From positions 51,336 through 115,335 of the forward strand of contig JAQWAQ010000001.1 in the NCBI GenBank assembly GCA_028707635.1: a DNA stretch of 64,000 nt, given 5' to 3'. This stretch comes from Negativicutes bacterium. Its GTDB lineage: Bacteria; Bacillota; Negativicutes; JAAYSF01. Shown in pieces: positions 11,372-63,724 of this stretch. The translations under genes were made by a program, and so were the position numbers. Under the pieces are notes generated by a model. That model did not search any database, had not been told where the DNA came from, and worked only from the letters and a program-made list of their open reading frames with translations. The first letter of the stretch is position 1, and each line of letters begins with the position of its first letter.

Positions 11372-13402
11372 TTAAACACGGAACTTGCTGACAGCTTCTT
11401 GGAGGTCCATTGCTAATTTAGCAAGACTCTGACTTGAAGAGGCAATTTCCTCCATGGATGCGGACTGCTCCTCGGTAGCTGCAGATACCGTCTGGGCTTC
11501 CCCGGATGCCTTTTTGCTCAAGTTATCGATCCGGTTCACCGCTGTAACAATTTGTTGGCTGCCAATAGCCATCTGTTCAATGGCCGTAGAGATTTCCTTT
11601 ATCTGATCAGATACTTGGGTGACCAGTTCCACGATTTCTTGGAAAGCTTGTCCGGCAGCGTTAACGACTTCTGCCCCCACCTTTACTTCTCGGGTGCCAT
11701 CATTCATAGCCGCTACAGCTTTATCGGTCTCTCCCTGGATTCCGCTGATCAGTGCGGCAATCTGCTTGGCTGCTTCCTGGGACTGCTCGGCGAGCTTGCG
11801 CACTTCATCAGCCACTACGGCGAAGCCGCGGCCGTGTTCACCCGCCCGCGCAGCCTCAATAGCGGCGTTAAGAGCTAGAAGATTAGTCTGGCCGGCGATC
11901 CCCGAGATAGCATCTACAATCTGGCCGATTTCATTGGATCGTTCGCCCAATTCAACTACTACTTTGGCCGATGTATTAACAGTCTGTTCAATTTGCATCA
12001 TTTGACTAATTGCTTTATTCACCGACTTGCTGCCATCGTTAGCCTTAGCAGCGGCCTGCGCCGACTGTGCAGCTACACCATTAGTAGTGGCCGCTACCTG
12101 CTGGATACTGGCTGATATCTGTTCAACCACGGCAGATGTGTCGTTAGCCGCATCGAGTTGTTCTGCCGCACCTGTCGCTACATCGGTAATTGACGCTGCG
12201 ACCTGGTTAGCGGCCTGGGCAGATTGGTCAGCACTTGCTGTCAGCTGTTCGCTCGAAGCAGCTAGTTGCTCAGACTGGGAATGAACTTTTGTGACAAGCT
12301 CACGTAAATGCGTCCTCATTTGCCTGATTCCTTGCGCCAGTTGGCCGATTTCATCTTCTAAAGAAACCTTCGCCTCACGTTCCTGCAGGTCGCCTTGGGC
12401 TATAAGCAGGCATTCGTCCCGTATCAGCGCAATGGGTTTGGTGAACTGTTTACTAATAAACACAATCGACGCTGCCGCAATAATTAAACAAAGCAGCGAA
12501 ATAATCAGCATGGTTCGCGCTAGAGCATCCGTATCTTTTGTAGCTTCAGCCTCAGGCGCCGACACTACCATTATCCAGCGTTGGCCACCTGGAAGATCGA
12601 CGGGCGTGAATACGCCGTCTCTTGTCACACCGTCAACAAAGCTGTATACGCCGTGTGTCTGCTGGCCAGACTGAGCTGCTGTCGTAAAAAAATTGATTAG
12701 ATGGTCGTCGAGTTCCTTCTTCGGTAGCTTAAGTTCGTCGTTAACCTTCTTTTCGGCAAGATTCAACTTTCCAATCACTTCAGGCATTTTCGGATGGGCA
12801 ATAATATTTCCTGAATCATCAGCGATGAGCCCATAGCCGGTATCCAGGAATGTCAGATCCTTAATCAACTCTGTCATTGTCGCAAGAGAGTATGTCCCCC
12901 CCACAACCGCGGTAAGCTGCCCATTGTTCATGACCGGCACAGCCAAAAAGACGGATATTTGACCTGTCGCCCTTGAAATCAATGGTTCAGAGACATATGG
13001 TTTTTTCGTATCAAGGACCTTTTTAAAATACTCGCGGTCGCCATATTGCCCTGTACTCCCATCGGCACGAATCGCCGAACCATCTGGTGAAATAAACAGG
13101 ACGGTCTCAAAACCAATCTCATCCTGTATTTCAGTCATTGCTGCAGTAAGCTGAGCCATATCAGTCCCAGCTCGGAAAGTCGGCGTCTTAGCGAGGTCCT
13201 CCAACTGAACCATGATTACCCGAATACTGCTCTGCAAACGTTGACCATAGTCAGTTCCAATCGCGTCAGCCGTTTGATTAATGCTATTTTCCAAAGATCG
13301 CTGTGAGATATAATAACTAATCCCGGACAACACGCTTAATACCACAAAAACAAGCGGCAACAAGTAAATTAGCAGTCGAGTCTGAACACTTTTAATTTTC
13401 AT
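11372..13402 (-). CDS. Methyl-accepting chemotaxis protein with a periplasmic dCache-like sensor, HAMP and MCP signalling domains
   Basis: 676 aa with N-terminal and second TM segments. The Ala/Gln-rich coiled coil contains the conserved MCP tip ([18 protein letters not shown]...) and methylation heptads. Confidence 0.9.
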
Positions 13403-13467
13403 GTGGATAGCCTCCTTTATTGAACCTTTACAACTCTTCCGTTTCTACTCGCAAAAAAAGATCAGGC

Positions 13468-13489
13468 CAAAGCCTGATCTCATCATACG
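13468..13489 (-). terminator. Terminator downstream of the phnA-like gene
   Basis: AGATCAGGC-caaa-GCCTGATCT hairpin, followed on the minus strand by TTTTTTTGCGAG. Confidence 0.7.
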
Positions 13490-13664
13490 CAATGGCAACC
13501 TGGCAATCGTAGGAAAAAACCCTTAGACCCATAGCTTTGCGTCCTTACCTTTCGATAAGTTTGCCAATTTTTTCTATACTGTAGCATAATTTGTCGCAAT
13601 TAGCAATATTTTTTTTGCCCGAACATCCTAGTAACAGGACTTTGGGCCTACTACTTGCACTCCT

Positions 13665-23298: not shown

Positions 23299-23330
23299 AA
23301 AGTGCATGAATTGTCAAGGGGACGGGGTTG
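23299..23330. repeat. REP-like palindromic element flanking the RAYT gene on its 3' side
   Basis: TTGTCAAGGGGACGGGGTTGTTGTCAGG is the reverse complement of the units on the other side of the transposase gene. Confidence 0.8.
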
Positions 23331-23342
23331 TTGTCAGGATTT

Positions 23343-24113
23343 TTATGCTTTAAAAACAATTCCTCTATTAATCCCCGTGAGCCTTTCAATTTGTCGAATC
23401 GATAACTTATGCTTCTGCTTCAGTATTCTTAAGTACGTATTTCTTGTTTGAGAATCAACCTTCTGCAAATCTATTCCACTTTTTAAGTTACAAACCGTTT
23501 TTATTATTGCTCTTGCTTCTTCGTCCGTAATTCGCTGCTTGAACTCATCGTCAATATCTAAACAACATTCATGGTCACTACCATCATTGATGTATTTTAT
23601 AAATTTTTGTCTTCCGTTTTCGCAATCATCGCTTAGCATATCCATTAGAAGATTTATGGTTACCAAGTTTGCTTGATTTACATATTCATGAAAGCTACTC
23701 CATTTATATTCTTCAACGTTTTTTACTAGTCCAGCTTTAACTGGATTTTGATGAATATATCTTAGCACTGTTTGAAAGTATTGATCGTTTTCCACTGGCT
23801 CACTCTTAAATCGGTCTTGAAATAGATTCCCAATTCTCTGATATTTATTATTATACCAATACACATAGCTTCCGCATAACCGGCGCATTACTTGTTCCAA
23901 TGGCTCTATTCCTATTTTCAACAGCAGGTGTACATGATTCCCCATCAGACAATATGCATAGATTTCATATTTACTTTTTTCTTTATAGCGTTGCAGCGCC
24001 TCTAGGAATTGGGCACAATCTTCTTCGTCTTCAAAAATTGTCTGACGGTTTATTCCGCGCATGAGTATATGGTAAATTCCGCTGCAACTTTTTTTTCTTG
24101 CTGTTCTTGGCAT
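23343..24113 (-). mobile_element. REP-associated tyrosine transposase (RAYT, IS200/IS605-like Y1 HuH transposase) with a C-terminal DnaA-C-like HTH domain
   Basis: MPRTARKKSCSGIYHILMRGINRQTIFEDEEDCAQFLE...AYCLMGNHVHLLLK carries the HuH motif, and the catalytic-Tyr region is present. The C-terminal HTH reads LSIRQIERLTGINRGIV. It is flanked by inverted REP copies at 23299-23330 and 24151-24214. Confidence 0.85.
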
Positions 24114-24150
24114 GCTCTCACCCCTAAACTCATTGTATTTTACATTTCTA

Positions 24151-24214
24151 TTGTTGTCAACAACCCCGTCCCCTTGACATTTTGTTGTCAACAACCCCGT
24201 CCCCTTGACATTTT
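24151..24214. repeat. Tandem doublet of a REP element upstream of the RAYT gene
   Basis: Two direct copies of TTGTCAACAACCCCGTCCCCTTGACATTTT. Each is itself a palindrome, TGTCAA-N13-TTGACA. Confidence 0.85.
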
Positions 24215-42753: not shown

Positions 42754-45700
42754 TTATGGATCTAGTGGTGTTAGCTTTATTTCAACAAGGGTATATGGAT
42801 CATATGTGCCGGCTCCGGGGGCAATCGTTGCCGTTACGGTATTACTGGCATAGCCAGTCATGCTCGCTGTAAAGGTCACTTCGCCGGACGGAACAGATTC
42901 AAATCTAGCATAGCCGTACACGTTCGTGGTTTTTGAAGTTCCACCCTCCAGAGTTACCGTAGCGCCTTGGAGAGTATTGGTGCCGCTTTTGACTGTGACC
43001 TGGGCTTTACCTGGTAACCTATCCAGAACAATCACCTGCTCATTAGTGCCTTCATTGACTGTCACCCCCTGCATCATGCCTTGGTAACCATCTTTGAGTG
43101 CGGTATAGAAGTAGCTTTGTGTCGATACGTTAGTCGGCACTTTCGTTAATGTAAACTTACCATCTGCGCCTGAATACCCTAATACTTTCTTAGGATTAGA
43201 GTAACTTTCGCTAATTTCTGCTCCGCTGATCGGCTGACCCTTGCTGTCTTTAACTATCAAAGTTAAATCGCCGACCTTGTGAACGATAGTCAGATTAACG
43301 GAGTTGTTCTCCTCTGATATAGAAATAGTCTTACTGTCATCGTTATAGTTGTTACACGTTGTGGTAAAAGTATAGTCTCCGGCGGGCACACTAAAGGATA
43401 CATTCCCATAGCTGTCAGTTGTTTTAGTTTGGTCAACGCCATTACCTGTAACGCGCACGCTTGCACCCCACACATTTTTCTCAGCGTCGTCTTTGACATT
43501 AACTTGAGCAGTAATTATTTTATTGATCGTCAAAGAAATGTTGCCAGTGATACTTCTGGAGATTGTCACGCTTTGGGACTTACTTTCATAACCGGTGCAA
43601 GTTATATCAAAGGTATAGTTACCGACAGGGAGGTTTGTAAAAGAAACTTTACCGTCAGCGCCGCTATTTTTATCAATCTTACTGCCGTTTACAGTTACAG
43701 AGATTTTAGCTCCGGGAACCGGCCCTGAGCCGCTAGTCACTATAAAGTCCACGCTGCCCATTGCCGGCAAAGTTATTGTCGTGCTCGCCGGAGTATCGGC
43801 TGCAATTGTTACGACAGCAGTCTTACTGTCATAGCCTGATGTGGCGGTAAAGGTGTACTGACCGGTGGGGATGGAGGTAAATGTTGCTTCCCCTTGTGCA
43901 TTAGTTGTTTCTGTTTTTACTTGACCATTCACTGTCACGCTGACAGTTATGCCGCTAATGGGGTTATCGCCGTCCGTGACCGTAATCTTCGCGCCGCCGG
44001 TCTGGCGGGTTAAGGCGATGCTTGAGGTCGCTGTGGCTCCGTTTGCTATGACTACGTCACTTGCTGTACCGCTGACGTAATCCGCCTTAGTGGCTGTGAA
44101 GGTATATGTGCCGGTCGGGATGTTTGCAAAGATCACCTCGCCGTTAGCGGCGGTAGTCGCCGTTTGCTCCTGACCGTTTAGCGTCACTTTGACAGTGACT
44201 CCGCTAAGCGGTGCTGTGCCATCAGTAACCGTGATCTTTGCATTACCTGTCTGGCGTGCTAGGGCTATGGCTGCAGTCGCTGTTGTTCCGTTTGCTATGA
44301 CTACATCGCTTGCTGTACCGCTGCCGTAATCCGCCTTAGTGGCTGTGAAGGTATATGTCCCTGTCGGTATGTTCGCAAAGGTCGCCTCACCGTTAGCGAC
44401 GGTAGTTGCCGTTTGCTCTTGGCCGTTTACAGTCACTTTGACAGCGACTCCGCTAAGCGGTGCTGTGCCGTCAGTAACCGTGATCTTTGCTCCGCCGGTC
44501 TGGCGAGTTAAGGTCACATCGGCAGTAGCTATTGAGCCGCCGGTTATGGTTGTGCTTATTGTGTTGCTGTTATAATCTGCCTTCGTTGCTATAAAGGTGT
44601 AGGTTCCTACTGGCAGATTCGTAAATGCCGCCACACCGTAATCATCGGTAACAGCCGTCTGGGGTTGGCCGTTTACCGTCACGCTGACGGCTGCTCCGCT
44701 AAGCGGTGCATTAGAATCATCTTTAACAGTAATGTTTGCTCCGCCGCCCTGTGGTGTCAGAGCAATCGCCGCAGCTACCGTCTCTTTGTCGGCAACAGCT
44801 GTATTTACACTTTTGCCGCTGTAGTTGGCAGCGCTGGCAGCTACTGTATAGGTTGAACCGGCTGTCAGACCGCTAAAAACGGCTGTGCCGTCGCTGCCGG
44901 TGGTTTTTGTATCAATAACATTGGAACCGCTTTTCAGCTCGACTGCAGCGCCGTTTATGACTGCTTTACTGACTGCGTCGATAATCATTGCCACAATGTT
45001 GCCTCCGCTGGCTGGTAATACGACGGTAGAATTGCTTGTCGAGCCGTCTGCTACGCTTACCGCCAAGCTTTTCATCTCTTTGCCGCTATAGGCAACCGTG
45101 AATTTGTAGTTCCCCGGCGGTAAATTCGGGAATGTGGCTATACCGCTTGCATTGGTAACTGCCGTCACTTTGAAACCGGCAGCCGCATAGGCTGTCTTAA
45201 CTCCGAGAATTCGGTCAAAGAGACTCTTGTCGGCCGCACCATACAGCCCGTCTGCAGTTTCGGCGGTAACTGTCGCGCCGCCAACATCTGCCCCGGCTTC
45301 ATCCAGTACATGGATAAACGCTTTGCCGCCAAGAATGGCTAAAGCAATAGGAGGAACGGTTGTAGTTTGGTCTTTTTGTACAATCACCGCCGAGCTAGTG
45401 CTGCTAATGCTGAAATAGGAGGCGCGTACTGTATAATCTCCTGCATCCAGGCCGCTTAACACCGCTATGCCATTTGCGTCGGTTATCGCTACCGCGCCGA
45501 CCGGACTACCGTTTTGATATGCTTGCACTTGCGCGTCTTGCAGTGCTGCACCGCTGCCATTGGTTACTGTTACGCTTAAGCTGCCGGTGTAAGCGACAAA
45601 TTTAGTAAAGGTTTCGGTTTTGATATCATTTTCCCGTTGCACCTTTTGCAAGATCTTATGACTGATATCATTCGACCGCTCTTGGGGATTGCCGCCATGC

Positions 45701-46632
45701 AAGGCCGGCCCTGCCGTATCGGCCAGTTGATAAAGGACTTTGCCGTAGAGACTTCCGCTGCTCAGGTTAGAATTGGTATAGCCCATTTCCATGGATAGCC
45801 TGGGGGTAAGCTGCATTTTACTGCGCAGTCTGTAGCCGTTTTCATCTTCTTTGTGCTTGTTGTCATAGTGAAATCCTGAGGCATAAAGGCTGAACCAGGG
45901 AACATTCGCTAGCGATGTGCCCACTTCATAATCAAAACCGCTCACCGCCCGAATGTAGGAATACAATATTCCATCGGCAAGGGCGGTTCTGCCAGTTTGC
46001 CTATCGCCTGAAGTCGGGATGTAGAAGTTGGCCCGGTATTCCGCTTGCTTGTTGAAATATTCTGCGCCGACTCCAACGCGGGAAAGGTCGTGCTGGAAGG
46101 CATAGTCATAAAAAGCATTGACCCCGGTGATGCTGGTTTTATCTTCAGACAGCCATCTTAATCCCATGCCAAGATTTGCTGTGCTGTTTGCCCCGCTTTG
46201 ATAAGCGTAGCGTCCTTGCCAGAAGCCAAGCTTACCGTCTGTAACTTCCTTTGTAAAAGGTTGAAGGGTCTCAAGCGAGTATATCGGCTTGAAATCCTCG
46301 GTAAACGTAAGATTGATATCAGTCGTCCGCAGCCATTCTGGCCCTTGCTGCTTGCCATTTTGCGCGTAATAAGGGATAAGTTGATTGATAAATTGGACAA
46401 CTTTCTCCTTTGTTGATAAAGTAGCCGTGTCAGCATTCTGCTTGTTTTGGAACTGATCTTCTACCTGTTTATCTAGTGTAATTTCCGGTAGTTCGCTAGT
46501 TTGCTCGCTAGTATTTGCGCTGGCGGCTGCGTACACCGGGACTAGCGCCACCGTATTGGACATAAGCAACAGTGCCGTCAGAAAACAGGCCAACAGCTTG
46601 TTCAGTCGTTTAAAAATGTTAAACAAAGCCAA
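42754..46632 (-). CDS. Giant inverse autotransporter (intimin/invasin-type N-terminal beta-barrel) with a passenger of tandem CarboxypepD_reg-like repeats
   Basis: The N-terminal barrel motifs NAFYDYAFQHDLSRVGVGAEYFNKQAEYRANFYIPTSG match the intimin/invasin barrel pattern. Many ~88-aa Ig/CarboxypepD_reg-like repeats follow (ITVTDGTAPLSGV.VKVT.NGQEQTATT.ANGE..FANIPTGTYTFTATKADY). The start is the TTG at 46632 or 46626. Confidence 0.8.
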   Translation of the reverse strand: MALFNIFKRLNKLLACFLTALLLMSNTVALVPVYAAASANTSEQTSELPEITLDKQVEDQFQNKQNADTATLSTKEKVVQFINQLIPYYAQNGKQQGPEWLRTTDINLTFTEDFKPIYSLETLQPFTKEVTDGKLGFWQGRYAYQSGANSTANLGMGLRWLSEDKTSITGVNAFYDYAFQHDLSRVGVGAEYFNKQAEYRANFYIPTSGDRQTGRTALADGILYSYIRAVSGFDYEVGTSLANVPWFSLYASGFHYDNKHKEDENGYRLRSKMQLTPRLSMEMGYTNSNLSSGSLYGKVLYQLADTAGPALHGGNPQERSNDISHKILQKVQRENDIKTETFTKFVAYTGSLSVTVTNGSGAALQDAQVQAYQNGSPVGAVAITDANGIAVLSGLDAGDYTVRASYFSISSTSSAVIVQKDQTTTVPPIALAILGGKAFIHVLDEAGADVGGATVTAETADGLYGAADKSLFDRILGVKTAYAAAGFKVTAVTNASGIATFPNLPPGNYKFTVAYSGKEMKSLAVSVADGSTSNSTVVLPASGGNIVAMIIDAVSKAVINGAAVELKSGSNVIDTKTTGSDGTAVFSGLTAGSTYTVAASAANYSGKSVNTAVADKETVAAAIALTPQGGGANITVKDDSNAPLSGAAVSVTVNGQPQTAVTDDYGVAAFTNLPVGTYTFIATKADYNSNTISTTITGGSIATADVTLTRQTGGAKITVTDGTAPLSGVAVKVTVNGQEQTATTVANGEATFANIPTGTYTFTATKADYGSGTASDVVIANGTTATAAIALARQTGNAKITVTDGTAPLSGVTVKVTLNGQEQTATTAANGEVIFANIPTGTYTFTATKADYVSGTASDVVIANGATATSSIALTRQTGGAKITVTDGDNPISGITVSVTVNGQVKTETTNAQGEATFTSIPTGQYTFTATSGYDSKTAVVTIAADTPASTTITLPAMGSVDFIVTSGSGPVPGAKISVTVNGSKIDKNSGADGKVSFTNLPVGNYTFDITCTGYESKSQSVTISRSITGNISLTINKIITAQVNVKDDAEKNVWGASVRVTGNGVDQTKTTDSYGNVSFSVPAGDYTFTTTCNNYNDDSKTISISEENNSVNLTIVHKVGDLTLIVKDSKGQPISGAEISESYSNPKKVLGYSGADGKFTLTKVPTNVSTQSYFYTALKDGYQGMMQGVTVNEGTNEQVIVLDRLPGKAQVTVKSGTNTLQGATVTLEGGTSKTTNVYGYARFESVPSGEVTFTASMTGYASNTVTATIAPGAGTYDPYTLVEIKLTPLDP
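43975..44770. repeat. About three near-identical 264-bp tandem repeats inside the giant adhesin gene
   Basis: The repeats are visible at nucleotide level, e.g. ccgtttgctatgactac...gtaaccgtgatctttgc recurs. They encode the 88-aa domain copies. Confidence 0.85.
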
Positions 46633-52966: not shown

Positions 52967-53227
52967 AAGTTACACCAGCAAACTCAAGGCTCAGAGACTC
53001 ATAGTAGCGACTTTTCCTATTTTCTTGAAAGCCGTGAGCGATTAAAAGAAGAAATTCGTCGCATTATATTACAGAATACAGACGAGCAGGAGCCTTATGA
53101 AATTGCAGGCTGGCTTAAAACAAATCGAAATTCTTTAATCCACGATTTTAAAGAAAATGCTAGCCTTTCGATTCGCCAGATTGAGCAGGCAACCGGTATA
53201 TCTTATGGTGTTACCGCAAAAAGCTGA
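52967..53227 (+). pseudogene. Remnant of a RAYT-type transposase C-terminal (DnaA-C-like HTH) domain
   Basis: ..ASLSIRQIEQATGISYGVTAKS* parallels ..LSIRQIERLTGINRGIVFKA* of the intact transposase at 23343..24113. It has no start codon and no catalytic domain. Confidence 0.5.
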
Positions 53228-56392: not shown

Positions 56393-56444
56393 GAGGCTGT
56401 TTTTCGCCATTACCAGTGATACGGTTCTCCGTATCAGGTATAGC
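56393..56444 (+). repeat. About 50-nt hairpin-containing repeat, copy 1
   Basis: TTTTCGCCATTACCAGTGATACGGTTCTCCGTATCAGGTA with stem GATACGG/CCGTATC. The second copy is at 57850-57900. Together they flank phzF. Confidence 0.6.
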
Positions 56445-56549
56445 GGCGAACTTTCACTACATTGTTTCGCACGCAAACTGTCCACACTTATTTAAAAGCT
56501 CAAGCCTGACACCTAGCATCTCTCGTATTAGGTATATCTCATTTACGGA

Positions 56550-57849: not shown

Positions 57850-57900
57850 CGGCCTCTTTTCGCCGTTACCAATGATACGGCTCTCCGTATCGGGTTAAAC
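57850..57900 (+). repeat. About 50-nt hairpin-containing repeat, copy 2
   Basis: TTTTCGCCGTTACCAATGATACGGCTCTCCGTATCGGGTTA. See copy 1 at 56393-56444. Confidence 0.6.
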
Positions 57901-58956: not shown

Positions 58957-59367
58957 TTTTTTCCTCCTAGTGTTTATGTGTCTTATTTTACTTCTTAGTA
59001 TTCCAATTAACTTCTATATACTATTAAACGCCTATATCAGCATAAAGTAACGCTAGCTACACCAAAAAACTACTCAAAATCGATAATTACAGTAAACCAG
59101 CCGACCTCAAGATGTATGACTACATACAAAAACAACCTCAGCCCTTATTTTGATATGCTCCCCTTGTGGTCAATGTCATTAAGTTAAGCAAAATAGAACG
59201 TTTACATCCATAAAAGTAGATGTGAACGTTCTATTTTTATATTTGCTAATCATATAAAAAAACACTCGACAAATAGCAGAAAGTTTGCGGCTCTGCCCTT
59301 GAAATATAAAGATTCGAGGGAGGAACGCATAGAAACTTTATTCAAAGAATTAAAATATGATGTTGGA

Positions 59368-59874
59368 TTAGCGAGCCGCAGTATTTCGGTCAAGCACACC
59401 GACGCCAAGATAGGCGCGAACAACTCGACCTTTTTCAATAACAGACTGAAGAATCGGCCGGGCGGTATTGATGGGAATTGCAAATCCGATGCCTTCAACG
59501 CCTGCCACGGCAATCTTGGCGCTATTGATACCAACGACAACTCCGTCAGCATTCACCAATGCCCCACCTGAATTGCCGGGATTGATGGCTGCGTCGGTTT
59601 GAATGAGTTTAAATTTACGTTCACCGATTTCAATTGACCGATTCAGAGCGCTAATAACGCCAACAGTGACGCTCCCCCGAAATTCCATACCCAGCGGATT
59701 ACCAATAGCAATAGCAGGTTCGCCGATCAGCAAACCGTCTGAATCACCTAAGACAGCGGTAGGCAATCCGGTTGTGTCGACTTTAACCACCGCAAGGTCA
59801 GTAGCCGGGTCAACTCCTAAAACCTTACCGTTAAAGGTCCGTCCGTCGGCCAGATCGATTTTCAAGTCATGCAA
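59368..59874 (-). pseudogene. Truncated HtrA/DegP-family serine protease fragment. It retains the Ser-active-site region but lacks the N-terminal His region and the PDZ domain.
   Basis: ..FNGKVLGVDPATDLAVVKVD...TDAAINPGNSGGALVNADGVVVGINS.. The fragment has no proper start and is cut at 59875 by the repeat element. Confidence 0.7.
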
Positions 59875-59914
59875 TACCCTCAGTAAGTGGGTATATCACT
59901 CTTATCTGCAAAAA

Positions 59915-60075
59915 CGTGTTGATGATTAACGCCTCGGAACACTATATGATAAAAGCCGCTGCTGCTTAATTGTCGCGATTGCCTTCCCATTTATCATCAC
60001 CGCTGACGATAGCATATCAAAATAATGACAAAAAAGGAACGTCCCCTACTGTCCTTGTCATCGTGAAAAGGTTGC
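59915..60075 (+). repeat. About 160-bp dispersed element, copy 1 (about 75% identical to 63240..63395). It ends in a TGACAA..TTGTCA palindrome around GGAACGTCCCC.
   Basis: aaaacgtgttgatgattaacgcctcggaacactatatgataaaagcc...aatgacaaaaaaggaacgtcccctactgtccttgtca. Confidence 0.7.
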
Positions 60076-60474
60076 GAAGGAACTGGGCATCTCTAGGCGA
60101 ACACTCTAATACAAGCTGAATAAATTCGGTTTGAGGACAAAATAGAGCAATATCTTTAAGTGAAGACAACCCTTCGCGCAGTCTAAAGAGTGACAACGCG
60201 CAAGGGCTGTCTTTATTTGCTGGAGGTGTCTGTATTTTTAGTGCAATAATTGCACTAAAAATAACGATGTTTTGGTTTGGCTGCTCTTTGAAATGAGCAT
60301 CTTTTCACAAACCCTCTTTTAAATCTTCTGGGTTATCCAAACTCCACGTAAAGGTTAATTGTTTTAAAATGTCATAAAATTCTTAATTGTCACGTACTAT
60401 GCAATATAGTTAAATTTACTTTGATAATATACCGTGGAGCGCTTACCGGCGGTATACTTTTAGGAGGTTAAGAC

Positions 60475-61269
60475 ATGAAATTGGAAAAATTGCAGTACAC
60501 AGTGGAAGACGGCATCGGCATCGTAATTATGAACTACATGAAGAATCTAAATGCCATTGACGAACAGATGGCTGATGAACTCATGTATATCGTGGAAACC
60601 CTGGAGAAAGACCCCAACGTTAAGGTAGTCGTATTCAAGGGCTCCGAGAAGGCATTCTCGGCTGGCGGAGACATTGGATATTTCTATCAACTTATCAAGG
60701 CTGGCGGCGAGGTCAATATGGACGGCCTGATCGAAAAGGTCGGCGTTGTCACCGACGGGATTAAGAAGATGAGCAAGCTAGTTATCGCCTCCGTCTGCGG
60801 CGCCGCAGCCGGTGCCGGCGTCAGTCTTGCGCTCTCCGCCGACTTCATTGTCTGCGCGGACAACGCCAAGTTCATCATGGCTTTCGTAAATCTCGGCTTG
60901 GTCCCCGATACCGGCGGAACCTATTTACTGGTCAAGGAGCTGGGCGAGAAGCGCGCCATGGAGCTCTGCGCCACCGGGCGTCCTTTGGGTGCCGAGGAAG
61001 CCAAGGCTGCGGGCATAATTTACCAGGTCGTTCCCAAGGAGGAGCTGGACGCCACTACCATGAAGCTTGCCAAGAAGTTTGCCGCCGGCCCGCTGCTCTC
61101 CTACAAGAATATCAAGAAACAGATATACGAAGCCAGCTTCCCAGACTACAAGAAGTATCTCGACGAGTGCGAGATCCCCACTCAGCGCGAATGTGCCGCC
61201 TCCACTGATTTCCAGGAAGGCGTCAAGGCCTTCATGGAGAAGCGCAAGGCTGCCTTCGAGGGCAAATAG
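60475..61269 (+). CDS. Enoyl-CoA hydratase/isomerase (crotonase-fold) protein
   Basis: VVVFKGSEKAFSAGGDIGYF and ..ASVCGAAAGAGVSLALSADFIVCADNAKFIMAFVNLGLVPDTGGTYLL show the crotonase oxyanion-hole motifs. GC is far above the window average. Confidence 0.85.
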   Translation: MKLEKLQYTVEDGIGIVIMNYMKNLNAIDEQMADELMYIVETLEKDPNVKVVVFKGSEKAFSAGGDIGYFYQLIKAGGEVNMDGLIEKVGVVTDGIKKMSKLVIASVCGAAAGAGVSLALSADFIVCADNAKFIMAFVNLGLVPDTGGTYLLVKELGEKRAMELCATGRPLGAEEAKAAGIIYQVVPKEELDATTMKLAKKFAAGPLLSYKNIKKQIYEASFPDYKKYLDECEIPTQRECAASTDFQEGVKAFMEKRKAAFEGK

Positions 61270-61692
61270 TCAAAGACGGAACGAGCTGTTGACTGCCTGG
61301 CTGATTGGTGGTTCTACTATGCAGATTATTGGCGCGAGCAAGGAGCTTGATCATGGCGAGTTCTCGGCGACAACGTGTTCTGCTTCTTTCAAGGCTTCTT
61401 CACGCTCACCGGCGCGGTCAGCAGCTTTATGAAGTTCCTCTGCCCGGTAATAGGTGCGACCTATGACGTCAGAGTTGAAGACCTCGGTTTGAGTGTGTGC
61501 ATCTTTGCGCTCATTCTGCCCCGCATACTTCAAGAATCCCAACGGCACCTTCGACATCTATGTCGCAAGCGCAGTGCAGCTCAACGCCGCCTTTGACAAG
61601 GCTGTCCCTGCCTCTTCTTCTGCCTCTGATCAAAAGCAAGGCAACTGAAACAACCTGATTCCTGATGGCTCAAGATAGCATAATACGGAAAG

Positions 61693-62424
61693 GTGGTAAC
61701 TAAATTGCGATCAAAAGTTGTGACTAGAGAAGAAGCCCTAACAAAGATTAAAGATGGTCAGACAATAATGTTTGGTGATTGGCACGGCGAGCTCTCCGCA
61801 GAAGAGATCATCACCGGAATGCTCGAGAAGGGTATTCAGAACATTTCTGCCATAGCCGTTTCCGCCGGTATGCCCGACCAGGGCGTTGGCAGGCTCATCA
61901 AAGAGCATCGTGTCAAGAGTATTGTCACGACACATATCGGTCTCAATCCCGTCGCCCGCGACCAGATGTTTGCAGGTGAACTTGAGGTCGAGTTCATCCC
62001 GCAGGGTACTTTTGCGGAGCGTATTCGTTGCGGCGGCGCCGGCCTCGGGGGCTGCCTCACCCCGACAGGCATCGGCACCGATGTTGAGATCGGCAAGCAG
62101 AAGCTCACCATCAACGGTAAGGATTATCTTCTTGAACTGCCCCTGTACTCGGATGTCGCGCTCATCAAAGCATGGAAGGCCGATACCGCCGGCAACATCG
62201 CTTTCAGACTAACCGGCAGAGCAACAAATAGTTATATGGCCTTTGCGGCAGATATTGTCATCGTCGAAGTCGAGGAACTGGTGGAGGTCGGAGAGCTCGG
62301 ACCCGAAGAGATTGACGTTGCGGCTCCTATCATTGATATGGTATATGTCAGAACCGGTGAGAAGAAACCTTTCTGCCTGATGTGGCAGCGTGCTAAGGCA
62401 AAAGCAGAAGGAGGCAAAAAGTAA
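61693..62424 (+). CDS. CoA transferase subunit A (3-oxoacid/acetate CoA-transferase alpha; AtoD/ScoA-like)
   Basis: ..GQTIMFGDWHGELSAEEIITG...IVTTHIGLNP..FIPQGTFAERIRCGGAGLGG.. The start is the GTG at 61693 or the TTG at 61705. The gene is GC-rich. Confidence 0.85.
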   Translation: MVTKLRSKVVTREEALTKIKDGQTIMFGDWHGELSAEEIITGMLEKGIQNISAIAVSAGMPDQGVGRLIKEHRVKSIVTTHIGLNPVARDQMFAGELEVEFIPQGTFAERIRCGGAGLGGCLTPTGIGTDVEIGKQKLTINGKDYLLELPLYSDVALIKAWKADTAGNIAFRLTGRATNSYMAFAADIVIVEVEELVEVGELGPEEIDVAAPIIDMVYVRTGEKKPFCLMWQRAKAKAEGGKK

Positions 62425-63083
62425 TGGCAGGACTGACAGGACGCGCACTTATTGCAGCTCGTTGTGCAAAGTTCTTTAAAAACGGCGATTTTGTAAATCT
62501 TGGAATCGGCGTTCCTCTGATGTGTGTCAACTATTTGCCCGAAGGCGTCGACCTCTGGCTCGAGGCTGAGATTGGCATCGTTGGCTGCGGTTCCTCCCCC
62601 AAGTGGGAAGACGCAGACCCTGATCTCATTGACGCTGGAGGACAGCCGGCATCCATAATCAAGGGCGGCAGCGTATGCGACCACACTACTTCTTTCGCCT
62701 TGATCCGCGGCGGTCACATCGACGCGGCCGTACTTGGCACTCTCCAGGTTGACCAGGAGGGCAATATAGCAAACTGGACAATCCCCGGAAAGCTCGTTCC
62801 AGGCATGGGCGGCGCAATGGACCTTTGCGCCGGCGTAAAGAAGATCGTTGTAGCCACCGACCACTGTGAGAAGAGCGGCGAGTCAAAGATACTCAAGAAG
62901 TGCACCCTTCCTCTGACCGGCGCCAAGTGCGCAACTGACATTGTCACAGAGAGATGTTACTTCGAGGTCGGAGCCGACGGGATAATACTCAGAGAACTGA
63001 CTCCGGGCTACACCGTCGAGAAGATCCGCGCATGCACCGAAGCCGATTTCATAGTCCCCGAAAAGATTGGCGTAATGGAATAA
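62424..63083 (+). CDS. CoA transferase subunit B (AtoA/ScoB-like)
   Basis: ..FVNLGIGVPLMCVNYLPEGVDLWLEAEIGIVGCG...SFALIRGGHIDAAVLGTLQVDQEGNIANWTIPGKLVPGMGGAMDL.. The start is adjacent to subunit A's stop. Confidence 0.85.
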   Translation: MAGLTGRALIAARCAKFFKNGDFVNLGIGVPLMCVNYLPEGVDLWLEAEIGIVGCGSSPKWEDADPDLIDAGGQPASIIKGGSVCDHTTSFALIRGGHIDAAVLGTLQVDQEGNIANWTIPGKLVPGMGGAMDLCAGVKKIVVATDHCEKSGESKILKKCTLPLTGAKCATDIVTERCYFEVGADGIILRELTPGYTVEKIRACTEADFIVPEKIGVME

Positions 63084-63197
63084 TTCCGGGCCGGTAAGGA
63101 AAAAGCGGGGTCAAAAAAGTGGGGTCAGGCCTTACATTGTTGCATTTCTTGATGTAACACAATAACACAACACCTACTGAACGTCCAACGTCCAAAG

Positions 63198-63226
63198 GTG
63201 TCAATAACCCCGTCCCCTTAACACCT
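63198..63226. repeat. REP-like palindromic element
   Basis: GGTGTCAATAACCCCGTCCCCTTAACACC, with the same CCCCGTCCCC core as the RAYT-flanking REPs. Confidence 0.75.
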
Positions 63227-63239
63227 AATCACATACTCC

Positions 63240-63395
63240 CTCGAAAATATGTTGATGGTTAATACCACGGAAAACTATATGATAGAACCCTGTACTGCTT
63301 AGTTGCCTCACTTTCCTACCCACAGTCCCTCACCTCTATCCACAATTATGACAAAAAAAGGAACGTCCCCAGCTGTCCCGAAAAGTTTGTGTAAA
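63240..63395 (+). repeat. About 160-bp dispersed element, copy 2. An IS256-family transposase N-terminal remnant follows it.
   Basis: cgaaaatatgttgatggttaataccacggaaaactatatgatagaaccc...tatgacaaaaaaaggaacgtccccagctgtccc. Confidence 0.7.
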
Positions 63396-63457
63396 TATGT
63401 CTTCCTGAATGGCAAGAATAGGAATAAAACTATTCAAGTCAGCAAGGAAGATTTTTT

Positions 63458-63560
63458 ATGTCAGCGATTCCAAAGAAAGTAATTAACGAGCTAATTCGAG
63501 AGCAAAAATTCAGCAATACTACCGAAGTCATGAATCCATGCTGGCGGATTTGTGTGTCAT
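63458..63560 (+). pseudogene. N-terminal remnant of an IS256-family (mutator-type) transposase
   Basis: MSAIPKKVINELIREQKFSNTTEVMNP.. resembles the N-termini of IS256-family transposases (..ELIKEN.ITTTEDI..). It is truncated after ~35 aa and runs into REP copies. Confidence 0.45.
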
Positions 63561-63623
63561 GGGGAAGGGGTTACCGACAACCTTTCTCTATTGTAATGTC
63601 AATAACCCCGTCCCCATGACACC
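63555..63623. repeat. Inverted pair of REP-like elements (BIME-like)
   Basis: TGTCATGGGGAAGGGGTTACCGACAAC (63555-63581) and TGTCAATAACCCCGTCCCCATGACACC (63596-63623) are in opposite orientations. Confidence 0.7.
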
Positions 63624-63724
63624 TATGTAAATAGACTTTCAGAGTAAAGGGCAATATCATACAAGAATGCTATTACCTCTTATGTTACACTAAATATTAG
63701 ATAATCAGGAAAGGGGGAAAGTTT

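Follow-up and report, generated by a model that had tools for sequence, protein, structure and literature searches.

A putatively acquired three-gene acyl-CoA cassette among REP elements and RAYT pseudogenes in a Negativicutes genome

How does a compact set of GC-rich metabolic genes come to lie in DNA littered with broken mobile sequences? We consider this question for a 64,000-nucleotide stretch (hereafter the window) from the metagenome-assembled genome (MAG) of a Negativicutes bacterium, a diderm Firmicute from a bioreactor (GenBank assembly GCA_028707635.1, contig JAQWAQ010000001.1, positions 51,336 to 115,335). The open reading frame (ORF) listing and profile searches place three intact plus-strand genes, for a crotonase-fold protein and the two subunits of a CoA-transferase, in a cassette at 60475-63083 (Table 1). 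An earlier note on this DNA had proposed a horizontally acquired short-chain acyl-CoA module, delivered by a composite transposon or another insertion sequence (IS). Our analysis supports the first part of this proposal and finds no positive evidence for the second. The reading that we favour, at a probability of roughly 0.7, is that of a horizontally acquired three-enzyme operon within a pseudogene zone rich in repetitive extragenic palindromic (REP) elements and REP-associated tyrosine transposase (RAYT) genes, and thus of an ordinary genomic island.

The cassette stands apart from its surroundings in composition, as the earlier note had observed, and this was borne out by three measures. 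The GC content of its genes is 0.52-0.55 against a window average of 0.42, GC at third codon positions (GC3) is 0.72, 0.57 and 0.61 in gene order against ~0.29-0.45 in the flanking genes, and in synonymous-codon deviation the three genes take ranks 1, 2 and 3 among the 48 ORFs of the window. The DNA to the right of the cassette has a GC content of 0.34, as seen in an independent Logan contig that runs past the window end (L001; loci and contigs used for comparison are cited by such L numbers). Several other window ORFs also have GC3 values of 0.5-0.6 (up to 0.61), the window being a compositional mosaic. Strong purifying selection acts on the three intact genes, with a Ka/Ks of 0.05 for the crotonase-fold gene (against L016) and of 0.05-0.16 across all three.

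What, then, argues for horizontal acquisition? Composition is one of four grounds, the others being near-identity across phyla, differing gene contexts and tight limits of homology. Homologues of the crotonase-fold protein, which belongs to the enoyl-CoA hydratase (ECH) superfamily by its Pfam match, include metagenome proteins at 97-83% identity and a 91% cluster that takes in Sporolactobacillus (Bacilli), and identities of 75-80% are found in Frisingicoccus (Lachnospiraceae), Fusobacterium nucleatum, Christensenella and Megasphaera. The host is placed among the Negativicutes by its PhzF protein, encoded in the flank, which has 100% identity to a Negativicutes MAG protein and 70% to its counterpart in Propionispira arboris; a search for its homologues gives the same organism only, followed by a drop to 76%. 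In every locus examined (L007, L009, L012/13, L016 and L017) the trio lies among unrelated genes, and DNA homology between the window and its relatives ends at 60453, some 20 nt before the first start codon, and at 63097, 14 nt past the last stop. At the DNA level, L016 comes nearest to the cassette, with 94% identity. In L007 the composition of the cassette is native (GC 0.595 against 0.58 in its flanks) and in Fusobacterium it is fully ameliorated, with a GC3 of 0.12-0.15, whereas the window cassette is not adapted. These comparisons support a relatively recent acquisition, probably from a donor of higher GC. The cassette is itself a mosaic, its ECH gene being 90% identical to L017 at the nucleotide level and its CoA-transferase genes 74% identical to L017 but 85% to L009, which suggests recombination between cassette lineages.

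Could the cassette instead be ancestral to the host lineage, its composition reflecting selection, for example for high expression? A 76%-identical homologue in Megasphaera hexanoica, also a Negativicute, and the raised GC3 of other window ORFs would fit such a history, yet the closest homologues lie outside the Negativicutes (the 91% cluster with Sporolactobacillus, and the 94% DNA contig with different flanks), the GC3 of 0.72 lies above that of every other window ORF, and the context of the trio differs in every genome examined. The identities, which are not a formal tree, also suggest incongruence between the trio and the species tree, and we regard an ancestral cassette as extremely unlikely. 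The host itself is marked as a diderm within the window by an inverse autotransporter, CsgG and FlgT-like proteins; the inverse autotransporter (42754-46632, minus strand, 1292 aa), with an IAT_beta domain and about 11 CarboxypepD_reg repeats, is encoded by compositionally atypical DNA with a GC content of 0.49.

The interval between the first two cassette genes (61270-61692), in which a decayed gene had been suspected, does hold one. In L017 and L018 an intact parent gene separates the ECH gene from that of subunit A (203 aa; L017 854-1465), and its DNA is 82% identical to window positions 61287-61552. A tblastn search with the L017 protein recovered residues 38-62, 63-115 (77% over 53 aa), 116-128, 171-187 and 188-201 in three frames; the window copy has thereby lost its first ~37 codons and ~41 internal codons, and has undergone at least three frame changes. 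The parent protein has no match in Pfam or in the PDB, and aligns collinearly and over its full length, far below cut-off, with acetate uptake transporter models (PRK10659, E 5e-4; AceTr_1, E 9e-4). The junction of the 5' deletion is identical in the window and in L016, which has lost still more of the gene, and the flanks of these two cassettes differ; a shared junction despite different flanks suggests that the channel gene was broken before the copies reached their different contexts.

The CoA-transferase genes were named correctly in the earlier note. Both products exceed the curated NCBIfam cut-offs for 3-oxoacid CoA-transferases (pcaI/scoA, TIGR02429, 166.1 bits against 128.5 for subunit A; pcaJ/scoB, TIGR02428, 307.1 bits against 243.55 for subunit B), and their genes are adjacent and overlap through ATG/TAA at 62424. 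The true start of subunit A is likely the TTG at 61705 (239 aa), following the gene call in the independent assembly L001. The best solved relatives are 8k9h, an acetoacetate:butyrate/acetate CoA-transferase (8k9h_B for subunit A), and Escherichia coli AtoD and AtoA (5dbn_A and 5dbn_B, E 1e-59 and 1e-63). In the alignment of subunit B with AtoA, LEAEIG stands opposite LQSENG, with the glutamate conserved, serine replaced by alanine and asparagine by isoleucine; we take the S-E-N-G motif of AtoA and SCOT to carry the catalytic glutamate of the B subunit. The pair is thus a predicted family I (3-oxoacid or AtoDA-type) CoA-transferase that retains its catalytic glutamate, with an activity and substrate range that are predictions. 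A brief and incomplete literature search on the trio in Fusobacterium and on PDB 8K9H gave nothing specific, and no paper on the substrate of the trio.

The first gene, on the other hand, fits its earlier label of crotonase less well. No NCBIfam equivalog cut-off is attained by its product: the best match, to FabM, scores 220 bits where 400 are required, the next two are generic enoyl-CoA hydratase/isomerase models, and PaaG is fifth (TIGR02280, 182.7 against 345.15). When aligned with the hydratase 5xzd_A, GGGCELAM stands opposite GAGVSLAL and GQPEINLG opposite IMAFVNLG, with serine and phenylalanine replacing both glutamates, the two catalytic residues of the hydratase (Glu144 and Glu164 in rat ECH numbering). 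When aligned with PaaG (4fzw_C), LGLVPDTGGT of the window protein stands opposite LGLIPDCGGT, the motif MAF...GL(I/V)PD.GGT being common to both, and we take the aspartate of the GL(I/V)PD.GG loop to be the catalytic residue of PaaG-type isomerases. The likeness to the PaaG and FabM isomerases thus extends across the active-site region (FVMAFSKLGLIPDCGGT in PaaG, FIMAFVNLGLVPDTGGT in the window protein) and includes the loss of both hydratase glutamates. The differences are that the scores fall far under the equivalog cut-offs, and that the window-type enzyme is paired with a CoA-transferase in strict anaerobes. There are no paa genes in any context examined, and no other paa or fab genes among the neighbours examined. 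Judging from these residues, the first gene would encode an enzyme of PaaG/FabM-like isomerase type and is unlikely to encode a true crotonase, or enoyl-CoA hydratase (EC 4.2.1.17); with a CoA-transferase as partner in strict anaerobes, its substrate is probably a short aliphatic enoyl-CoA.

A useful point of comparison is the atoDAEB operon of E. coli, which together with AtoSC serves the activation of short-chain fatty acids and acetoacetate. Both systems have a two-subunit family I CoA-transferase, AtoD and AtoA being among the best structure matches of the window pair; both include a dedicated small-carboxylate uptake protein, here ancestrally; and both are associated with a sigma54-type activator, as suggested here by a remnant with a weak match to the C-terminus of AtoC and by the sigma54 promoter of the L009 homologue. 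Unlike atoDAEB, the window cassette has no thiolase, in whose place stands the PaaG-like crotonase-fold enzyme; its transporter is AceTr/SatP-like rather than AtoE, and dead; and its activator is cut to ~28 codons, with no sigma54 promoter found upstream.

If the cassette was acquired, did the DNA on either side carry it in? The cassette is bracketed by decayed mobile DNA, namely RAYT stubs and REP units, and the reported direct repeat does flank it (59896-60058 and 63228-63378, ~72-73% identical). Metagenome contigs scanned with the best-conserved block of this repeat, AAAAAAGGAACGTCCCCNNSTGTC, gave 17 loci, in most of which the block stands by itself as a palindromic unit or doublet, as a REP element would. 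L031 and L032, two places on one 256-kb JGI contig (Ga0316604_10000030), are more telling: here the repeat corresponds to the beginning of an intact 246-aa gene, encoded on the other strand, together with the DNA that precedes it; the L032 product of this gene matches Pfam Y1_Tnp (2.4e-13) and is 41% identical to an intact RAYT of the window (23343-24194). Judged from these outside copies, the true extent of copy 1 is 59849-60058, at 89% nucleotide identity to L031/L032, and tblastn with the L032 protein aligns residues 1-32 with 59990-59895 (84%) and, after a change of frame, residues 33-48 with 59895-59848. Both window stubs end short of the HUH motif (HVHLLL, about aa 60-65 in L032). Going by these alignments, the repeat copies are 5' stubs of minus-strand RAYT genes, each with an upstream REP-2 motif, and not IS ends. 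Two other candidates for the 160-bp repeat, a structured RNA and the C-terminus of a sigma54 activator, dropped out after six-frame translation and once the metagenome copies showed the RAYT frame.

The idea that these 160-bp copies were the termini of an IS256-family element, and that a composite transposon or IS256-mediated event brought in the cassette, has some points in its favour: two homologous segments in direct orientation bracket the genes, copy 2 is followed by a stub whose short N-terminal ORF is seen again in L038, and some relatives have an IS or recombinase beside the trio (ISL3 in F. nucleatum 25586; rve and recombinase genes in L009). The copies are, however, ~72%-identical 5' coding stubs of RAYT genes that lack the body of the transposase, and they do not form terminal inverted repeats; the homology of the cassette ends at 60362/60453 and 63097, well inside the repeats, which no relative has in common with the window; there is no intact transposase; and a repeat search gave no inverted terminal repeats bounding the cassette, target-site duplications not having been looked for. 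The supposed IS256 transposase remnant is no more helpful. Its region (63380-63553) has a 78% nucleotide copy in L038 (102-268), likewise only a stub of ~31 codons, and the peptide starting at 63458 has no Pfam or NCBIfam match at E<=10, while blastn and tblastn against plasmids were negative. A phmmer search of 1.84 billion representative proteins gave one real match, a 60-aa stub, the other match being a low-complexity repeat protein. The left end, GAAAAGTTTGTGTAAATA, loosely resembles the TTGTGTAAAA of the IS256 inverted repeat, which is a lead and not a test; a possible element end is seen only at about 63380, and a right end and a duplication for comparison are not present. From its sequence, the region is probably best described as the 5' end of some element, with no family assignment, and delivery by IS256 or a composite transposon is very unlikely. 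Nothing points to the cassette transposing as a unit.

In F. nucleatum ATCC 25586, an ISL3 transposase in two ORFs lies directly downstream of the trio (L012 12389-13664), and in another strain of the species (L013) no gene is called at that position. The trio is recurrently found near mobile DNA, yet is tied to no single element.

The REP-like palindromes noticed near the cassette are well founded. The REP-1 motif, TGTCAAYAACCCCGTCCCC, has 6 copies in the window against 0.01 expected, and a doublet of it forms a strong hairpin (Table 1). Three copies, at 23318-23336 (minus), 24155-24173 (plus) and 24186-24204 (plus), give the intact window RAYT its classical inverted flanks, and the other three lie at 63199, 63561 (minus) and 63597. 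The REP-1 copies beside the cassette probably originated with this intact gene. A further motif, REP-2 (TGACAAAAAAGGAACGTCCCCnnCTGTC), forms doublets, either tandem or perfectly palindromic, in L022 (6855-6921), L024 (~11560-11640) and L030 (298-356), on contigs of 38-48% GC, and appears from these copies to be a second REP family. As in known REP/RAYT systems with REPINs or arrangements resembling bacterial interspersed mosaic elements (BIME-like), there is an intact RAYT with inverted REP-1 flanks, doublets form hairpins, and stubs adjoin REP-like motifs; here, in contrast, two REP families and at least three RAYT pseudogene fragments occur inside 11 kb, and the Y1 gene is more like a multi-copy IS200-type element. 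This last point follows from L031 and L032, where near-identical intact copies of the 246-aa RAYT-like gene (12871-13611 and 457-1197, respectively), each preceded by REP-2, lie on one contig, as would be expected of an IS200-type element and not of a single domesticated RAYT.

Other traces of repeats surround the locus. A third partial copy of the flanking repeat, a REP-1/REP-2 stub, lies just past the window end (L001 5891-5981), and the C-terminus of a RAYT of the L031/L032 type (aa 190-246, 55% identity) remains at 53051-53224 on the plus strand. Either side of the PhzF-like gene is a 39-51-nt repeat (56400-56450 and 57857-57895), with a 96% copy in L032 (1375-1425), which may be a terminator or another intergenic repeat. 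Beside the third partial copy, about 2-5.4 kb past the window end and downstream of AraC, EamA and DUF2000 genes, are two RVT_1 genes of 681 and 435 aa (L001 6073-9575), probably of group II intron type.

Table 1. Features of the cassette and its surroundings, in window coordinates.
Feature	Position	Strand	Description and evidence
Crotonase-fold gene	60475..61269	+	264 aa; Pfam ECH_1 1.5e-57, full length
CoA-transferase subunit A (AtoD/ScoA type)	61693..62424	+	Pfam CoA_trans (PF01144) 9e-51
CoA-transferase subunit B (AtoA/ScoB type)	62424..63083	+	Pfam CoA_trans (PF01144) 9e-34
Leader co-travelling with cassette	60362..60474	+	Sigma70-like site 60387-60416 and ribosome-binding site; 82% identity to L016 4-97
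Pseudogene of 203-aa membrane protein, weakly AceTr/SatP-like	61286..61649	+	tblastn of intact L017 gene; DNA alignment with L016 and L017
Internal fragment of HtrA/Do-family serine protease	59371..59848	-	NCBIfam SerProtHtrA positions 114-273/357; Pfam Trypsin_2
RAYT (Y1/IS200-like) stub, copy 1	59848..59990	-	Codons 1-32, frameshift, codons 33-48, in-frame fusion to htrA fragment
Leader of stub copy 1	59991..60058	-	REP-2 motif TGACAAAAAAGGAACGTCCCCTACTGTCC at about 60026-60054
C-terminal helix-turn-helix (HTH) remnant of sigma54-dependent (AtoC/NtrC-type) activator	60062..60145	+	Directly after copy 1 REP-2; in-frame stop
Perfect palindrome	60233..60263	+	15-nt arms, T-rich tail; terminator-like
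REP-1 unit	63199..63227	+	Abuts and truncates RAYT stub copy 2
RAYT stub, copy 2	63228..63323	-	Codons 1-32, GTG replacing ATG; 69% to L032 RAYT aa 1-32 (tblastn)
Leader of stub copy 2	63324..63378	-	REP-2 motif 63354-63378
5' stub of an element	63380..63553	+	~78 nt leader and about 26-32 codons (MSAIPKKVINELIREQKFSNTTEVMN...); peptide from 63458
Inverted REP-1 doublet, REPIN-like hairpin	63554..63622		DNA fold -22.8 kcal/mol, z -6.6
Intact RAYT gene	23343-24194	-	NF047646 88.1 against cut-off 80

To the left of the cassette, the supposed htrA gene cut at 59875 by a ~160-bp insertion is something else: a doubly truncated fragment fused to codon 48 of a RAYT at 59848/59849. The 168-aa ORF at 59368-59874 is chimeric, its first residues, HDLKIDLA, being RAYT residues 41-48, and HtrA homology runs from about 59841 to 59371. 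The fragment is without the N-terminal third of the protease, where we would expect the catalytic histidine to lie, and without the PDZ domain. The simplest reading of these junctions is that one deletion fused the RAYT to a downstream htrA on the same strand and that a second removed the 3' end. The fragment is 83% identical to the htrA product of L015 over 59841-59371, and its nearest named homologues are in a Sporomusaceae MAG (84%) and then, at lower identity, in other Negativicutes. The fragment may be what is left of a resident gene, an incomplete second copy of one, or a relic of a mobile element.

The last of these options raises the possibility that the cassette came in as part of a larger integrative or conjugative element, of which the htrA fragment, the activator remnant and other debris would be leftovers after deletion. 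Indeed, an htrA homologue at 84% (P0124) lies inside a region of L015 that resembles an integrative and conjugative or integrative and mobilisable element (ICE/IME), with a MobA/MobL relaxase, a topoisomerase and a serine recombinase; the fragment is compositionally atypical (GC 0.505, codon deviation rank 5 of 48); and the region has suffered serial deletions. Weighed against this, L015 and the window have only htrA in common, the htrA homologues belong to Sporomusaceae and other Negativicutes, the class of the host, att-like repeats were not found, and 57-64 kb shows no trace of a relaxase, integrase or conjugation gene. We consider arrival on a larger element unlikely.

The htrA piece is also where the assembly calls for most care. 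Logan contigs of several sequencing runs break within it, ending or beginning at 59398 and at 59783-59812 with a 30-nt overlap, which suggests a branch of the assembly graph inside the piece, and a segment that is repeated, or variable between strains, in those samples. Might the source contig then be chimeric, two pieces having been joined at a repeated htrA or RAYT segment, with the cassette not truly beside the genes at 54-59 kb? Each junction of the htrA piece is spanned by independent contigs from several runs (L004, 54498-59812; L001/L002, from 59783), and L001, at 100% identity, carries the cassette and 7 kb of AT-rich DNA to its right without interruption, so that the contrast in composition would survive even a wrong left join. 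A chimera is, to our mind, quite improbable.

Between the htrA fragment and the operon, which on the favoured reading was acquired horizontally, lies a candidate trace of former regulation. The remnant of a putative activator reads EKVAKELGISRRTL*YKLNKFGLRTK* in translation, asterisks marking stops, with a weak match to the C-terminus of AtoC (positions 435-457/461, E 0.07), and the palindrome that follows it is possibly the terminator of the lost activator gene. In a Sporolactobacillus-like relative whose ECH is 91% identical, a perfect sigma54 promoter consensus (TGGCAY-N5-TTGCW) stands before an operon with a major facilitator superfamily (MFS) gene, ECH and the CoA-transferase genes (L009 5431-5446 and L010 449-464), which is consistent with an activator remnant upstream of the window cassette; going by these sites, sigma54 may control the module family. 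Upstream of the window cassette itself, a search allowing up to 1 mismatch gave no sigma54 promoter. Scans for sigma70 promoters and terminators gave sites no commoner than in shuffled sequence, the site at 60387-60416 being at chance level, and Rfam gave no match at gathering score across 57.4-64 kb and the downstream 7 kb. A weak match to HEARO, the IscB-associated omega RNA, at 59249-59361 on the plus strand (20.7 bits against a gathering score of 83, E 0.45) was dismissed as probably due to chance.

Taken as a mechanism, the favoured history would run as follows. Horizontal transfer would have brought in a compact operon of a PaaG/FabM-type enzyme, a now-dead AceTr/SatP-like channel and an AtoDA-type CoA-transferase, perhaps preceded by the sigma54-activator gene of which the last ~28 codons are left. 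Carboxylate uptake, originally through the channel, would precede CoA activation, in which acetyl-CoA or butyryl-CoA may serve the transferase as CoA donor and an imported C4-C6 carboxylate as acceptor, for instance acetoacetate or an acid that is unsaturated or carries a hydroxyl group. The acyl-CoA so formed would then be turned by the crotonase-fold enzyme into an intermediate of butyrate metabolism or beta-oxidation, most likely by a double-bond shift and less likely by hydration. The operon would sit in a decaying intergenic zone filled by the host lineage's own REP/RAYT system, where two independent RAYT stubs lie, one fused to htrA by deletion and the other truncated by REP-1.

Several points weigh against this account. 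An empty site was not found, the one genome of a related species that was retrieved, that of Propionispira arboris, showing no synteny by tblastx, so that the insertion is inferred and not seen. Given the other GC-rich ORFs of the window, composition as sole argument is weaker than it appears. The AceTr/SatP (GPR1/FUN34/YaaH) label of the channel parent is a weak one, under the curated cut-offs, and the reading of the activator remnant as the Fis-type HTH tail of a sigma54 activator is likewise weak, coming mainly from a motif over ~25 residues. The substrate and reaction are predictions from homology, and the linkage of the cassette to 54-59 kb rests on the source assembly.

How, then, does the locus compare with genomic islands in general? 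It shares with them an atypical composition, a patchy spread across phyla, and mobile debris and pseudogenes around the cassette. It differs in being very small, with about 2.7 kb of shared DNA, and in lacking an integrase, a tRNA target and any direct repeats on its flanks that insertion would explain. As a case of horizontal transfer it is ordinary, and its residual interest lies in an uncharacterised and widely shared enzyme trio. It is possible, though we hold it doubtful, that the trio and its ancestral AceTr-like channel form a highly mobile, uncharacterised module under sigma54 control for one small unsaturated or oxo acid, recently spread across Bacillota, Negativicutes and Fusobacteriota (including F. 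nucleatum, with 75-80% protein identity across phyla). Less likely, zones rich in REP elements and RAYT genes would be preferred landing or capture sites for such modules.

To conclude, the main value of this analysis is corrective: the labels "htrA", "crotonase", "IS256 remnant" and "non-coding gap" are wrong or incomplete, and are better replaced by a RAYT-htrA fusion pseudogene, a PaaG-type enzyme, an element stub of no assigned family and a dead channel gene. What these corrections leave in view is a small acyl-CoA module that is unusually conserved across phyla, including in the clinically studied Fusobacterium nucleatum, and whose substrate, if determined, would be relevant to many gut and bioreactor anaerobes.

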